30,043 nucleotides of DNA from Clostridiales bacterium (GTDB lineage: Bacteria > Bacillota > Clostridia > Oscillospirales > Acutalibacteraceae), in the NCBI GenBank assembly GCA_012728445.1, contig JAAYFA010000315.1, positions 1 through 30,043 of the forward strand. The letters run 5' to 3'. A program made the translations under genes and the position numbers. Of the stretch, positions 2,835 through 16,885 are shown in pieces. The notes under the pieces are model-generated. The model did not search any database and was not told where the DNA came from. It saw only the letters and a program-made list of their open reading frames with translations. Every line of letters begins with the position of its first letter. Within the stretch, counting starts at the first letter, position 1.

Positions 2835-4043
2835 GTGAAAACGCTGCTGACAGTATCATTAGTTCTTTTGGCTGCTGTGCTTGTTTTATTGCTTGCGGAT
2901 ATAATCCCTATGCTCCGACGATGGCTTTCTCGTATACATATCGGTCAATGGGAAGACGAAGAAGAATGGAAAACTAAGGTAGAAAAGTCATTGCTAAAAC
3001 AATTAAGACATGCGCCGTCAGTACCTGTTAGCGATAATACAAGGCTGACATTTATCGAAAGGCTGCGGGGTACCTATACAAGTAAAAACATACAAAGCTG
3101 GCAAGAGGCAGCGTTGCTGTTAGGTGCTAACGAAATGCACAAGCAGAAGGCTGTTGATGGACAGATTAAGGAATTTATAGGCAGAAGAATAAACCCTGTA
3201 AGCGGGGAGTGGCAAGACTGCCATGAAAAGGTTGATACGGCGATGTTGGCATTCGCAATTTTGTCATCTCCCGTTTCCGATAAACAAAAGATAAAGCCAG
3301 CAATGGATTCAACAGCAAAAATGCTGCTTGACCTAGCCGAAAGATACGCAACCATACCCTATAACAATAGTGTGCCGAATGTAAGATTTGTTGATACGGT
3401 TGGCATGATTTGCCCTTTTTTGTTCAAGTACGGATTGGCATACGACTGTGAGAGGGCTATTGAAACGGCAAAGAGGCAAATAACGGAATCTATAGACTGG
3501 GGGATTCATCCGGTACAAAAGCTTCCTGCGCATTGCTTTAATGTTCATTCACGAGCGCCTCTTGGGATTTATGGTTGGGGAAGAGGTGGTGGTTGGATAG
3601 CCATTGGTCTAATGGACTCTTATTTATCTCTTTTGACTGCAAAGAACTCTAATGCTATGAATACAAACAACCATAACGAATTGAAAGACTATCTTATGGA
3701 GCAAATGACCTCTGTGGCCTGGGCTCTTATTCGTGTGCAAATGGATAACGGAGCTTGGGGCAGGCAGATTTTTATAAATGAAGCAGGTGAATCCTCGGCA
3801 ACGGCGATGATTGCGTGGTTTATGGGCAGGATGTGTTATTTAACTGACAATGAACAGTATAAAGAGTCAGCAGATATGGCAAAAAACTTTCTTTTAGAAA
3901 GCACGAGGCGCAACGGCACGGTGGATTTTGCACAAGGCGATACTAAAGGGATAGGTTTCTACTCCACAAAACTCGACGCAATGCCTGCCGCACAAGGGTT
4001 TACGGTCAGGTGCTTCTTGGGCCGAGAGAATGATGGCCGTTGA
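2835..4043 (+). CDS. GH88/GH105-like (alpha/alpha)6-barrel glycoside hydrolase with an N-terminal membrane anchor
   Basis: GTG start with GGAGG at 2824-2828. Hydrophobic N-terminus (LLTVSLVLLAAVLVLLLA). Motifs 'RFVDTVGMICPFL', 'WGRGGGW' and 'ESSATAMIAW' resemble the GH105/GH88 motifs 'W(I/V)DxLxM', 'WxRGNGW' and 'ETSASAM'. Confidence 0.7.
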   Translation: MKTLLTVSLVLLAAVLVLLLADIIPMLRRWLSRIHIGQWEDEEEWKTKVEKSLLKQLRHAPSVPVSDNTRLTFIERLRGTYTSKNIQSWQEAALLLGANEMHKQKAVDGQIKEFIGRRINPVSGEWQDCHEKVDTAMLAFAILSSPVSDKQKIKPAMDSTAKMLLDLAERYATIPYNNSVPNVRFVDTVGMICPFLFKYGLAYDCERAIETAKRQITESIDWGIHPVQKLPAHCFNVHSRAPLGIYGWGRGGGWIAIGLMDSYLSLLTAKNSNAMNTNNHNELKDYLMEQMTSVAWALIRVQMDNGAWGRQIFINEAGESSATAMIAWFMGRMCYLTDNEQYKESADMAKNFLLESTRRNGTVDFAQGDTKGIGFYSTKLDAMPAAQGFTVRCFLGRENDGR

Positions 4044-4239: not shown

Positions 4240-5001
4240 ATGACAGATATTCATTGTCATATTCTGCATGGAATTGATGACGGACCACGAGATATTGACA
4301 CCGCCCTCAGACTGTGTATGTTGGCCATGGAAAATGGAATAGATACCATTGTTGCCACGCCGGATTTGACGACGCTCGGTGAGATTGAAGCGTTTGTTGA
4401 TTTTAGAAACAATCGTCTGGAAGAACTTCGCTACGAGATAAAACGAAGAGAAATGCTGATCGATATCTATGCGGGAGCAGAGGTTTATGCGAGCGAAGAG
4501 CTTTTCTACCCGTTATCTTTGGAAAAAGCCACGATTAACGGTAGCCGTTATATTCTTGTAGAATTTGACTTTATGGGGTTGAGTTTTTCGTCCGTACTCA
4601 GGTATATAGAAGAAATACGCAGAAGAGATTTGGTGCCAATCATTGCTCACCCCGAAAGATATTCATTCCTTCAGGTTCAGTACGACAGGGTGAATTTTTT
4701 GATGGATATGGGTGCTCTTTTTCAAATCAATGCCGGCAGTCTCGCAAGTATGTGCGGGAGGGAAGAGTTCAACCTCGCCTATGAGATGGTACTGAAAAAT
4801 GCGGCGTCGTTTATTGGGTCAGACGCGCATTCGTTGCGTAACAGACCCAACGATATGTTAAAGATGATAAGAGATTTTCCGCCGAACATCAGCCGAAAAG
4901 CGCTTGACAGGATGCTGAACATCAACCCCCAAGAGGTTATTAGGAATGAGACTGTTAAGCGATCCCTTGACAGTGGGCTGCTGAAAAAAAGAAGATATTA
5001 A
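4240..5001 (+). CDS. PHP-family protein-tyrosine phosphatase (CpsB/CapC/YwqE-like)
   Basis: 'DIHCHIL...DDG', 'GAEV', 'YILVEF', 'IIAHPERY', 'QINAGSL', 'GSDAH'. The ATG at 4240 is preferred over the TTG at 4216. Confidence 0.9.
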   Translation: MTDIHCHILHGIDDGPRDIDTALRLCMLAMENGIDTIVATPDLTTLGEIEAFVDFRNNRLEELRYEIKRREMLIDIYAGAEVYASEELFYPLSLEKATINGSRYILVEFDFMGLSFSSVLRYIEEIRRRDLVPIIAHPERYSFLQVQYDRVNFLMDMGALFQINAGSLASMCGREEFNLAYEMVLKNAASFIGSDAHSLRNRPNDMLKMIRDFPPNISRKALDRMLNINPQEVIRNETVKRSLDSGLLKKRRY

Positions 5002-5052: not shown

Positions 5053-6573
5053 ATGAAAGAAAAAACGGAAACTGCTTACGATATGTATGGTGATGATTCT
5101 GCAATAGACCTTGGCAGAATCGGTGCGGCATTGCTAAATAAACTTTGGTTGATTATTCTGGTTGGCGTGCTGACGTCCACCGTTACATTTTTTTACGCAA
5201 AAGCTACTCACGTCGACAATTATGTTTCAAGCACAACGCTCGCTTTTACTACCACCAGCCGGATTATCGAAAAGGATGAGGACGGCAATGAGATCGATAG
5301 ATTAACCGAAAAAAAACCTTACACAGGGAAGGATGTCGAAAGATACCAGTTTTTGCTCACAAGCGACGTTATGGTTCAAAAGATTTTCGATGCTTTGGGT
5401 GGGGGGTACACTAAGCTCGAGATCGAAAAGTCGCTGGCCGTAAGCAGTTCCCCTATTACGGGTATTTTTATAATCAATGTTACGAGCATTGACGAAGGGT
5501 TTTGCAGGCAAGCTATCGATTATATAATATCAATCTTTCCCGACTATTTGAAGAGCTTTGACACAAGTCTTGGCATTGATGTAATCAAGTATCCAAAGTC
5601 ACCGAGCGTTTCTAACGAAAGCAAGGCAGGAGAAAAAGCTGTTTACGGTTTTATTACAGGCGCGGCGCTGATTATTTTTATTATTTTGGCAACCGAGGTT
5701 TTAAGCGAAACGGTGAAGGAAATAGAAGATATCAGGAGCAAGACAAACATTAAATTCCTGGGCTCAATTCCTGCCGTTGAGGGCGATAAGAAACGCGGGC
5801 GCCATAAAAAACAAACCGGATTGATACTGGCAGACGAAAACAAAGTTAGTTTTTCATTTGTAGAAAGTTTTAAGGCGATAAGAACGAAAGTTGAAGGCAT
5901 TGCTGCCGAAAAGGCATACAAGCTTTTCGTAATAACAAGCACGTTCGAAAACGAGGGTAAAACGACAGTGGCAATAAACCTTGCCTGTGCGCTTGCGCAA
6001 AAGGGGAAGTCTGTGTTGCTCGTCGACTGCGACTTACGCAAACCTTCGATTATGCGCACAGCCGGGATGAAAGATGACGAAAAAAACGGTTTGATACAAA
6101 TCATTAAAGGCGATTCCACCTATAGGGAGGCCATAAGATTTGCGAAGCCCCTCGGTATATCTATTCTGCCAAGTGGCGGTGTATCTTCAAAATCAACGGA
6201 GGTATTGGATGCAGATGTCGTTAAGGACGTGTTCAGAAAGGCTACGGCTGAGTTCGATTTTGTGATTATCGATACTCCCCCCGCACATGTCGTCGCAGAC
6301 TGCCTTGTTGTGGCGCCTCTTGCGGATGCGCTGATTTACACAATAAAGAGAGACTATGCGAAAATCAGCGAAATCAACGAAACACTGGAAGAAATCGCGT
6401 CGGCGGACATTGATATTGTCGGTTCAATCTTAACCATGAGCAATCAAGAAGGCTCAGGGAAATACTTTTCCCGGCGAGGCGGACTTTATTATTACTACCG
6501 ACACCGTAAGGGCTACTATAAAGGGAATTATGCTTACGGTTATGAACCAAGCGATGTCAAAAAGCAGCCATAA
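5053..6573 (+). CDS. Fused polysaccharide co-polymerase (CapA/CpsC/Wzz-like) and BY tyrosine autokinase (CapB/CpsD-like), paralog 1
   Basis: Two TM segments flank a short external domain. Walker A 'ENEGKTT', A' 'VDCDLRKP', Walker B 'IIDTPP', and a Tyr-rich tail 'LYYYYRHRKGYYKGNYAYGY'. The start could instead be the GTG at 5020. Confidence 0.9.
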   Translation: MKEKTETAYDMYGDDSAIDLGRIGAALLNKLWLIILVGVLTSTVTFFYAKATHVDNYVSSTTLAFTTTSRIIEKDEDGNEIDRLTEKKPYTGKDVERYQFLLTSDVMVQKIFDALGGGYTKLEIEKSLAVSSSPITGIFIINVTSIDEGFCRQAIDYIISIFPDYLKSFDTSLGIDVIKYPKSPSVSNESKAGEKAVYGFITGAALIIFIILATEVLSETVKEIEDIRSKTNIKFLGSIPAVEGDKKRGRHKKQTGLILADENKVSFSFVESFKAIRTKVEGIAAEKAYKLFVITSTFENEGKTTVAINLACALAQKGKSVLLVDCDLRKPSIMRTAGMKDDEKNGLIQIIKGDSTYREAIRFAKPLGISILPSGGVSSKSTEVLDADVVKDVFRKATAEFDFVIIDTPPAHVVADCLVVAPLADALIYTIKRDYAKISEINETLEEIASADIDIVGSILTMSNQEGSGKYFSRRGGLYYYYRHRKGYYKGNYAYGYEPSDVKKQP

Positions 6574-9250: not shown

Positions 9251-9391
9251 ATGAATATCGATCCTGAAATGCTTCTCAAGATCCTTGAAGATGCAACAGT
9301 ATTTTTGATGAAATTCTTTGGCATCAGTTTGCCCGACATTATCGCCCAATTGCAGCCTTTGATTCAGGCTATCATCGCTTTGTTCGCATAG
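9251..9391 (+). CDS. Small hydrophobic/amphipathic peptide 1, 46 aa: MNIDPEMLLKILEDATVFLMKFFGISLPDIIAQLQPLIQAIIALFA
   Basis: Translated by hand, as it is below the ORF-track cutoff. GAGGTG RBS at 9239-9244, 6 nt before the ATG. A strong hairpin follows the stop, and the C-terminus is similar to peptide 2. Confidence 0.75.
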   Translation: MNIDPEMLLKILEDATVFLMKFFGISLPDIIAQLQPLIQAIIALFA

Positions 9392-9608: not shown

Positions 9609-9746
9609 ATGGAATTAAAAGAGATTCTCGACATTATTGCTCTTATTGTTAAAAACGCTGATTTTACGGTAGTTCTGGACGCTTTTAAGCAGCTTTTGCC
9701 GGTAATAGAAAGAATTATTTCTCTCTTTGCCATGATCTTCGCATAA
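9609..9746 (+). CDS. Small hydrophobic/amphipathic peptide 2, 45 aa: MELKEILDIIALIVKNADFTVVLDAFKQLLPVIERIISLFAMIFA
   Basis: Translated by hand. GAGGTG RBS at 9597-9602, 6 nt before the ATG. A hairpin follows the stop, and the C-terminus is similar to peptide 1. Confidence 0.75.
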   Translation: MELKEILDIIALIVKNADFTVVLDAFKQLLPVIERIISLFAMIFA

Positions 9747-9773: not shown

Positions 9774-9808
9774 ATGAAAGGTGCAGCGTGAGTTGCGCCT
9801 TTCATTAT
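9774..9808 (+). terminator. Probable terminator hairpin after peptide 2
   Basis: ATGAAAGGTGCAGC-gtga-GTTGCGCCTTTCAT, a 14-bp stem that includes G-U pairs. Confidence 0.6.
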
Positions 9809-9890
9809 TGATAGACAAGTGTTTTTTGATGCTTTAGGAGAGGTTTTTCAAAAATAAACGGAAATATTTGAAAAAATAAAAAAATAAGTG

Positions 9891-9919
9891 TTGCATTCTA
9901 TAAAGCATTGTGATAATAT
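9891..9919 (+). promoter_or_regulatory. Sigma-A-type promoter of the S10 operon with an A-rich UP element
   Basis: TTGCAT (9891-9896), a 17-bp spacer, then TAATAT (9914-9919) with TG at 9911-9912. A-tracts lie upstream at about 9871-9888. Confidence 0.7.
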
Positions 9920-9925
9920 TTGTAG

Positions 9926-10228
9926 GCTGTCCTAATGGCAAAGGGCATAACTATGCTCAAAAGCCTGCATTTCAGCAGATATGCGTTGATTCGAAAGGTG
10001 GCCACCCTAGAGGTGGGGAATTTTCGAGGAGTATGTCCGATTTTAAACCGGGCGAAAAAATAGCCTGCATGCTGTCAACCGCTTTCCCTGCGGTTTTGCA
10101 GTTGCAGGAATGTGCGTTTTTTGCTACGCTGCCCCGGAAAGTTTTCCGGTTTTTTAAACGGGTAGATTGAAACACCCGGCTGCGTTTAGCAAATTTTGCA
10201 TAGCCCGCCAAATGAAGGAGGCGTTCAC
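9926..10228 (+). promoter_or_regulatory. Long (~300 nt) 5' leader of rpsJ; candidate ribosomal-protein leader/attenuator
   Basis: The distance from the predicted promoter to the rpsJ ATG. Contains a terminator-like hairpin, CCGGAA-agtt-TTCCGG-TTTTTT (10134-10155). Confidence 0.45.
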
Positions 10229-10540
10229 ATGGCAGTTAAGGGGAAAATCAGAATCAGACTCAAAGGGTATGATCACAACCTAGTCGACAAGTCAGCGGAA
10301 AAAATAGTTGAAACAGCAAAACGTACCGGCGCACAGGTTTCAGGTCCCGTTCCGCTCCCGACCGAAAAAGAGATCATCACGGTTCTTCGTGCGGTGCACA
10401 AGTAGAAGGATGCACGCGAGCAGTTTGAGCAACGCACACACAAAAGGCTTATCGACATCATCGGGCCTTCCGCCAAAACGGTAGAAGCACTAACCGGTCT
10501 TGAGCTACCGGCCGGCGTAGAAATTGAGATCAAGCTCTAA
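10229..10540 (+). CDS. rpsJ: 30S ribosomal protein S10 (uS10/NusE), interrupted by an in-frame TAG at codon 59
   Basis: [20 protein letters not shown]...[42 protein letters not shown]...[14 protein letters not shown]. The 103-codon frame is full length apart from TAG at 10403-10405. RBS AAGGAGG at 10215-10221. Confidence 0.95.
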
Positions 10541-10650
10541 CTCTTATACATTATTATAATAACGCGGCATCAAACCCGCCGGAGTATAATAACGAAACAC
10601 CGCAGGTCATGTTGACAAAGGTCAACCAATAACCTTAAGGAGGAAATTTG

Positions 10651-11283
10651 ATGCAAAAAGCAATTATCGGCAAAAAAATAGGCATGACTCAGCTTTTTGA
10701 CGAGAAGGGTAATGTAATTCCCGTCACGGTTGTCGAAGCAGGTCCGTGCCCGGTAGTTTTCAAGAAGACCATAGACAACGATGGTTACGAAGCAGTACAA
10801 CTTGGCTTCGGCGACATCAAGGTTCAACGGTTGAGCAAACCCCTGCAAGGGCACTATAAGAAAGCCGAAGTAGGCGTCAAAAAAACGCTCAGAGAATTAA
10901 AGTTTTCTAATTTCGACAGTCTTAATGTAGGTGATATCCTCAAAGCGGATATCTTCGCCGTGGGCGACCGTGTCGATGTTGTCGGCACAAGCAAAGGTAA
11001 AGGTTGGGCAGGCGTCATTAAAAGATGGCATTTTTCCAGGCTTAAAGAATCGCACGGCAGCGGTCCTGTCGCAAGACATGCCGGCTCTATCGGTGCGTGC
11101 AGCGACCCCGGCAAAGTAGTCAAAGGCAAAAAAATGTCGGGTCATATGGGGCATGAACGTGTCACAATCAAAAATTTAAACATTATCAAGGTTGACGCTG
11201 AAAACAATCTTATTGCCATTAAAGGTGCCATTCCGGGACCCAAGGGCGGCATAGTGATGATCAGCAGCAGCTTTAAAGCGTAG
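10651..11283 (+). CDS. rplC: 50S ribosomal protein L3
   Basis: 'KKIGMTQLFDE', 'DVVGTSKGKG', 'GHMGHERVT'. The RBS spacing favours the ATG at 10651. Confidence 0.97.
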   Translation: MQKAIIGKKIGMTQLFDEKGNVIPVTVVEAGPCPVVFKKTIDNDGYEAVQLGFGDIKVQRLSKPLQGHYKKAEVGVKKTLRELKFSNFDSLNVGDILKADIFAVGDRVDVVGTSKGKGWAGVIKRWHFSRLKESHGSGPVARHAGSIGACSDPGKVVKGKKMSGHMGHERVTIKNLNIIKVDAENNLIAIKGAIPGPKGGIVMISSSFKA

Positions 11284-11300
11284 GGAAGGAGAGAATTATA

Positions 11301-14484: not shown

Positions 14485-14909
14485 TGCTGTTGCCTAAACG
14501 CGTAAAACGACGCAAGCAACACAGGGGCCGCATGAAAGGCGTTGCCACGCGAGGCAATACCGTCACATATGGTGATTTCGGCCTTGTTGCTCTCGAGTCC
14601 GCCTGGATATCATCCAATCAAATTGAGGCAGCCCGTGTTGCAATGACCCGTTCCATCAAGCGTGGCGGCCAAGTTTGGATAAAAATCTTCCCCGATAAGC
14701 CAATAACGGAAAAGCCTGCGGAAACCCGCATGGGTTCAGGTAAAGGATCTCCCGAGTATTGGGTTGCAGTCGTCAAGCGTGACAGGGTCATGTTTGAAAT
14801 CGCAGGGGTCGACAAGGAATCCGCGCAAGAGGCGCTACGCCTTGCCGCAAGCAAGTTACCAATCACGACCAAATTTATATCAAAGCAAGAAACGGGTGGT
14901 GAGCGATAA
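14484..14909 (+). CDS. rplP: 50S ribosomal protein L16
   Basis: '[16 protein letters not shown]', '[11 protein letters not shown]', '[13 protein letters not shown]'. Confidence 0.97.
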
Positions 14910-15787: not shown

Positions 15788-16131
15788 TGGGAGGTACAGC
15801 AAGGAATAAAAAAGTTCATGTTAGAACAAATGATGAAGTTGTCGTTATCAACGGGAAATACCGCGGTAAAAGGGGCAAAGTTGTTCAAGTCAGCCCTGCG
15901 GAAAATAAGGTCATTGTTGAGGGCGTTAACATCGTCACAAAGCATATTAAACCAAAAAAAGCCGGTGAGCCGGGCGGCCTTGTAAAAGCCGAAAGTGCTC
16001 TCTACGCATGCAAGGTTCAGCTTATTTGCCCCAAATGCGGGAAGCCTACGAGAACAGGCAGCAAAATCAACGCCAAAGGCAAGAAAATGCGCACATGCAA
16101 AAAGCAAAACTGCCTGGCGGAATTCGAATAA
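15787..16131 (+). CDS. rplX: 50S ribosomal protein L24
   Basis: KOW segment 'DEVVVINGKYRGKRGKV' and 'VEGVNIVTKHIKP'. The C-terminus has CPKC...C..C. The ATG overlaps the rplN TGA. Confidence 0.95.
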   Translation: MGGTARNKKVHVRTNDEVVVINGKYRGKRGKVVQVSPAENKVIVEGVNIVTKHIKPKKAGEPGGLVKAESALYACKVQLICPKCGKPTRTGSKINAKGKKMRTCKKQNCLAEFE

Positions 16132-16699: not shown

Positions 16700-16885
16700 G
16701 TGGCCAAAACATCAATGAAGGTAAAGCAGGCGAGGCCTGTAAAGTTTTCCACAAGGCAGCACAACAGATGCAAGATCTGTGGTAGGCCGCACGCCTATCT
16801 GCGCAAATACGGAGTATGCCGTATATGCTTCAGGGAGTTAGCCCATGCAGGGCGGATTCCGGGCGTTAGGAAGGCAAGCTGGTAA
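16700..16885 (+). CDS. rpsN: 30S ribosomal protein S14, short zinc-binding (type Z) form
   Basis: 61 aa, '[26 protein letters not shown]' (two CxxC pairs); GTG start. Confidence 0.96.

Follow-up and report, generated by a model that had tools for sequence, protein, structure and literature searches.

The window, a stretch of 30,043 nucleotides, is one contig (C189) of a MAG comprising 412 contigs and 2.41 Mb, with a longest contig of 30 kb, a G+C content of 46%, a completeness of 94.5% and a contamination of 3%. By L3, the nearest named records are MAGs of Acutalibacteraceae, Ruminococcaceae and Oscillospiraceae with no more than 76% identity, which places the organism among the uncultured Clostridia, in the Oscillospirales-type families. 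The gene rpsJ, encoding ribosomal protein S10, lies on the plus strand at 10229–10540. It is the first gene of the S10 operon, with rplC-rplD-rplW-rplB directly downstream; from 10651 onwards L3, L4, L23, L2 and S19 are encoded, followed by the rest of the S10-spc-alpha cluster. The rpsJ frame opens with ATG at 10229 and consists of 103 codons, of which codon 59 is a TAG at 10403–10405. The surrounding codons CAC AAG TAG AAG GAT occupy 10397–10411 and are translated as ...RAVHK*KDAREQ.... Past the TAG, the frame runs on to a TAA at 10538–10540 and is otherwise that of an intact 103-aa S10. With an X placed at the break, the translation matches the Pfam family PF00338 (Ribosomal_S10) with 122.8 bits (cut-off 21.2) over profile positions 1–98 of 98. 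The first-pass annotation, which had described a TAG inside the rpsJ frame with a conserved S10 C-terminus beyond it, is borne out by both the frame translation and the family match.

Upstream of rpsJ, two small ORFs lie at 9251–9391 (46 aa) and 9609–9746 (45 aa). Every same-species contig that spans them has them called as genes and conserved; neither has a Pfam match. Further upstream, differences from the same-species contigs are densely clustered at 3843–3893 (10 differences in 51 nt) and 4359–4425 (11 differences in 67 nt), within the GH88 and CpsB/CapC genes. These clusters have the look of short recombination tracts, or of patches of the capsule locus that vary between strains, rather than of errors.

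Other copies of the locus carry a sense codon at the position of the stop. An exact-match search with the adjacent L3 protein retrieved ten contigs of the same or a very close species, nine of which span rpsJ and belong to four accession series. Identity to the window is 99.7–99.9% for eight of these and 95% for the ninth. All nine have C at 10405 and encode an intact 103-aa S10, codon 59 being TAC (Tyr) in five, GAC (Asp) in four and TAG in none. Logan contigs show the same base in four runs, each from a different study (manure, air, an unspecified metagenome and wastewater) and each contributing one contig that covers the rpsJ stretch of the compared region (window 9800–11300) over 1.2–1.45 kb. 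C at 10405 is present in 4/4 and is the sole difference from the window, apart from an additional G at 10403 in the air run. When indexed public runs were queried with 101 nt centred on the TAG, at most 2 of 6 sampled 31-mers were found in any run, and with a 1.5-kb query the top-matching runs all peak at 0.97 of words. These run-search results fit an absence of the TAG-bearing words from every listed run, as read from contigs that lose rare variants and from an index that the source run of the MAG possibly lies outside. Among 29 genomes of relatives, codon 59 is TAC or TAT (Tyr) in 28 and GAC (Asp) in one, and a further 43 S10 genes adjoining related L3 genes encode Tyr, His, Asn or Asp; a stop occurs in none of either set. 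The alignment to relatives proposed in the first-pass annotation thus returns a sense codon throughout, and only this assembly has G at 10405.

The species is naturally dimorphic at S10 codon 59, with either Tyr (TAC) or Asp (GAC). GAC is carried by L095, L096, L097 and L099, all four being contigs of a single accession series, and by the air-metagenome run, and TAC by another contig of that same series, by contigs of three other series and by three further runs; the TAC loci include L094, L100, L101 and L102. Run X5 is listed with the dimorphic loci, and a second species of the genus has GAC at codon 59 as well (G002/L008). Judged by its position in the HK-Y-KD loop, the exchange of Tyr for Asp at codon 59 is the equivalent of S10 Y58D in Staphylococcus aureus. 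In S. aureus RN4220, introduction of cloned Y58D increased the MIC of every tetracycline by 2- to 4-fold, and the substitution is present in most livestock-associated S. aureus ST9 isolates (PMC10393890). It is also reported in Enterococcus faecium ST80 (Valzano et al. 2025, cited in PMC12232799), and in the two species rpsJ Y58D figures as an allele of reduced susceptibility to tetracycline, tigecycline and eravacycline (PMC10393890; PMC12232799). The link to the tetracycline site that had been drawn from the position of the stop therefore proves apt in another way, namely through the natural Tyr/Asp dimorphism of the codon.

The stop in rpsJ has many counterparts in the MAG. A well-assembled congeneric genome (G001) served as reference: every ORF in 1.2 Mb of its sequence was compared with the MAG by tblastn, and a stop was retained when it lay inside the best-scoring frame, in competition among all frames, with conserved flanks on both sides. 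One of the stops given below came from a first scan on longest non-overlapping ORFs, which was noisy owing to off-frame or antisense ORFs and upstream regions. Besides rpsJ, at least ten in-frame stops interrupt conserved genes of the MAG when it is compared with this 1.2 Mb. They are found in EF-G (TAA at C184:21788; Asp in G001, Glu in conspecifics), in DnaK within the motif AEKAKIELS (TAG at C152:4215; Lys in G001), in YebC (TAG at C187:8298; Phe in G001, Tyr in conspecifics), in a Gfo/Idh/MocA-type oxidoreductase (TAA at C16:4911; Glu), in a ROK-family kinase within the motif DNDANCAALGE (TGA at C239:3712; Cys) and in a phosphoglucomutase-type protein within the motif TEPKIK (TAA at C136:15152; Lys). 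Further conserved genes are interrupted at C317:2075 (TAG; Leu in G001), C304:21354 (TAG; Glu, in a protein of 1058 aa in G001), C289:17372 (TAA; Lys), C135:672 (TAG; Lys) and C156:13578 (TAG; Lys). Family searches of the MAG likewise recover EF-G (797 bits, above the cut-off) with one TAA and DnaK (919 bits) with one TAG. In the reverse control, with ORFs of the MAG aligned to G001, none or one in-frame stop of comparable quality was found. Three kinds of candidates were dropped as internal stops: a TGA at C189:24927, a short distance ahead of the L17 start, a TAA at C143:2254, which lies close to a C-terminus, and several short or antisense ORFs. About five frameshift-like breaks, defined as adjacent tblastn segments in different frames of one G001 protein, were also seen on contigs C316, C232, C383, C411 and C391, as candidates from the comparison with G001 alone.

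Including rpsJ, the 12 in-frame stops comprise seven TAG, four TAA and one TGA, and the residues they replace are Tyr, Lys, Glu, Leu and Cys. Counting internal TAGs in other conserved genes, as the first-pass annotation had called for, thus finds them alongside in-frame TAA and TGA. Random single-base substitution on the codon usage of the MAG is expected to give 45% TAA, 37% TAG and 18% TGA, and at most one TGA among 12 stops has a probability of 0.33 under this model; the observed mix fits random substitution on the codon usage of the genome.

For DnaK, EF-G and YebC, same-species contigs were retrieved by exact look-ups of the neighbouring proteins GrpE, S7 and MraZ. The DnaK codon is TAG in the MAG and AAG in 2/2 contigs, the EF-G codon is TAA in the MAG and GAA in 4/4 contigs from four accession series, and the YebC codon is TAG in the MAG and TAT in 6/6 contigs. 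The corresponding proteins in these contigs are intact (616, 688 and 243 aa for DnaK, EF-G and YebC, respectively), so that all three compared stops are private to the MAG.

Nonsense changes are accompanied by private changes of other types, a change being counted as private where all covering contigs (at least three in the window, at least two elsewhere) agree on another base. Downstream of rpsJ on the plus strand, L16 (rplP) carries I52V through A>G at 14637 (A in 4/4 contigs, including the 95%-identical relative) and K128T through A>C at 14866 (A in 4/4 contigs), and S14 (rpsN) carries Q52R through A>G at 16854 (A in 3/3 contigs). The start codon of rplX (L24) at 15802–15804 reads AGG owing to a T>G at 15803, where 3/3 same-species contigs have T; in L094–L096, L24 is called from an ATG at 15802–15804. 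Since G001 agrees with the conspecific contigs at residue 52 of both L16 (Ile) and S14 (Gln), the states of the MAG at these two residues are derived. Outside the ribosomal operon, a ParA/CbiA-type protein carries the private missense change F370S at 6161, and the missense changes at 14637, 14866, 16854 and 6161 are all towards G or C. In the ribosomal operon, 5/5 private changes are non-synonymous (S10 Y59*, L16 I52V, L16 K128T, S14 Q52R and L24 ATG>AGG), whereas the 95%-identical relative differs in the same genes by 202 synonymous and 18 non-synonymous changes (18/220; 92% synonymous). Across the three compared regions (~25 kb), 12 of the 19 private substitutions are non-synonymous, including three nonsense changes and one start loss. 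The non-synonymous share would be ~78% if changes were random and is 8% in the natural pattern, against which 12/19 has a binomial P of ~3e-9. Among these 19 changes, 15 are towards G or C and 11 are transversions. Such a GC-ward, transversion-rich spectrum resembles an instrument or processing signature more closely than it does natural mutation, which is transition-biased.

Two estimates of the error density can be drawn from these data. Nonsense accounts for 3.9% of random substitutions on the codon usage of the MAG; 12 stops in ~0.9 Mb of aligned coding sequence therefore correspond to ~3 errors per 10,000 bases. Counting private changes directly gives ~8 per 10,000 bases, a figure that includes real strain differences. 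With ~25 or more nonsense sites per genome, ~0.3 would be expected per 30-kb window.

The stop allele is private to this assembly, and the MAG carries many similar private defects. We are therefore highly confident that the TAG reflects one wrong base in the noisy consensus of the MAG, a G at 10405 in place of C, and that rpsJ is an ordinary gene whose real codon is TAC. On this reading, the G would have entered the consensus of a low-quality MAG while the organism itself encodes Tyr at codon 59, and rpsJ would be intact in the organism and translated by the standard code. MAG-wide errors at roughly 3–8 per 10,000 bases would leave scattered nonsense and missense changes, one gene deprived of its start codon and some breaks resembling frameshifts, in genes whose disruption a living cell would not survive. 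We infer that the errors were introduced during assembly, polishing or low-coverage base calling. De Bruijn assemblers normally require that a k-mer be seen at least twice, which counts against the entry of so many errors. That the error falls on a polymorphic, drug-relevant codon looks like a coincidence. An origin of the TAG from the assembly of mixed TAC and GAC alleles was considered and rejected, as neither allele has a G at the third position. A change of TAC to TAG by sequencing or consensus error had also been ranked likeliest in the first-pass annotation, and the C at 10405 in all same-species contigs and runs, together with the many private stops of the MAG, upholds this ranking.

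The alternative that fares best, though we consider it very unlikely, is a real rpsJ nonsense allele in the sampled population. Such an allele could be an evolutionary dead end or a minority variant, or it could depend for rescue on a suppressor tRNA of the amber or ochre type or on an unassembled second rpsJ. A suppressor tRNA or second gene copy could be missing from a MAG that is 94.5% complete and in which 32 tRNAs were found, and TAG and TAA, the pair that an ochre suppressor reads, make up 11 of the 12 in-frame stops. However, the MAG contains one rpsJ, and among the 32 tRNAs reported by ARAGORN, an incomplete set, no CUA, UUA or UCA anticodon is present; the rescue by suppressor tRNA or second rpsJ that had been put forward earlier thus finds no counterpart in the assembly. 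The TAG allele is seen in no run or contig examined. Moreover, the replaced residues are mixed rather than one, and one of the stops is a TGA, within a mix of stop types that fits random substitution. An ochre suppressor was rejected on the same grounds, namely the stop ratio that random substitution predicts, the tRNA not found and the heterogeneous residues. The stops also sit in contigs ~99.9% identical to intact copies elsewhere, and with them come the loss of the start codon of L24, missense changes that show no selection, and frameshift-like breaks. It is difficult to see how a living lineage would carry nonsense codons in S10, EF-G and DnaK at once. A narrower version, in which the TAG is real in the source sample as an amber allele of codon 59 besides Tyr and Asp and is read through by a suppressor tRNA absent from the fragmentary assembly, is highly improbable.

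We assign a negligible probability to programmed recoding, in which TAG would be decoded as pyrrolysine or some other amino acid, whether site-specifically or through genome-wide reassignment. Some Clostridia encode a pyrrolysine system, and the S10 C-terminus is perfectly conserved in frame after the TAG. The components of such a system are nevertheless not found in the MAG: the best match to PylS reaches 21.4 bits against a cut-off of 178, PylB and PylD have no match at E <= 0.001 in the 94.5%-complete assembly, and neither tRNA-Pyl nor any CUA tRNA is among the 32 tRNAs of the incomplete set. The pyrrolysine reading raised in the first-pass annotation is accordingly unsupported by these searches. 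Taken alone, the absences of pyl genes and suppressor tRNAs from a 94.5%-complete MAG with a partial tRNA set are weak evidence. Against TAG as a sense codon, it terminates 283 of 1284 long ORFs of the MAG (22%) and seven of the 40 tabulated genes of the window. Signs of genome-wide reassignment are absent, as TAG is not avoided as a terminator and the in-frame TAGs replace Tyr, Lys, Glu and Leu; the earlier judgement that such reassignment is unlikely therefore stands. That judgement had cited eight other window genes ending in TAG. TAG is indeed common as a terminator there, but the number is seven, since the KOW-containing L24 gene ends in TAA (16129–16131). It had further pointed out that readthrough of TAG would fuse IF-1 to L36, and the two are in frame. 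In addition, TAG occurs at codon 59 in no relative or conspecific, where Tyr, Asp, His or Asn is found, and in-frame TAA and TGA are likewise present in the MAG. Private and heterogeneous stops, together with the results for pyl genes, tRNAs and TAG terminators, leave suppression scant plausibility and programmed recoding next to none. The circumstance that the first-pass annotation named as pointing to an artefact or a private mutation, namely relatives carrying Tyr and a genome in which no pyl or suppressor genes are found, is what we observe.

Read as biology, the TAG in rpsJ does not hold up, and its main value is cautionary. This MAG is the genome that stands for its species in the GTDB-based collection searched, and its spurious nonsense, missense and start-loss changes number in the dozens, with even S10, EF-G, DnaK and L24 among the genes affected. 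Single-codon anomalies in this MAG, whether stops, recoding or resistance substitutions, need comparison with independent assemblies. As a by-product, we describe an uncultured Oscillospirales species, sampled from manure and air, in which the codon equivalent to S10 Y58 is naturally dimorphic for Tyr and Asp. By position, its Asp variant matches the substitution shown experimentally to lower susceptibility to the tetracycline class in S. aureus.

Compared with known systems, the locus resembles the pyrrolysine-type TAG recoding of Clostridia and methanogens in having an in-frame TAG followed by a conserved downstream frame. Unlike in that system, pyl genes and tRNA are not found here, the TAG is not conserved in relatives, and other types of stops interrupt genes of the MAG. 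With the S10 Y58D systems of S. aureus ST9 and E. faecium ST80, the species shares the residue of the HK-Y-KD loop, encoded as TAC or GAC in conspecific contigs. In contrast to those systems, the window itself carries a stop and neither allele, and the numbering is shifted by one (Tyr59 here). The Y58D phenotype comes from S. aureus, and its extension to this uncultured Oscillospirales organism would be by analogy. The locus also resembles the consensus errors and pseudo-nonsense codons of low-coverage short-read MAGs. The density of ~3–8 per 10,000 bases is rather high for such errors, and the changes here have a bias towards G or C (15/19). As in those assemblies, the rpsJ stop is a single-base change private to one assembly, and it is accompanied by private nonsense, missense, start-loss and frameshift-like defects that bear no sign of purifying selection.
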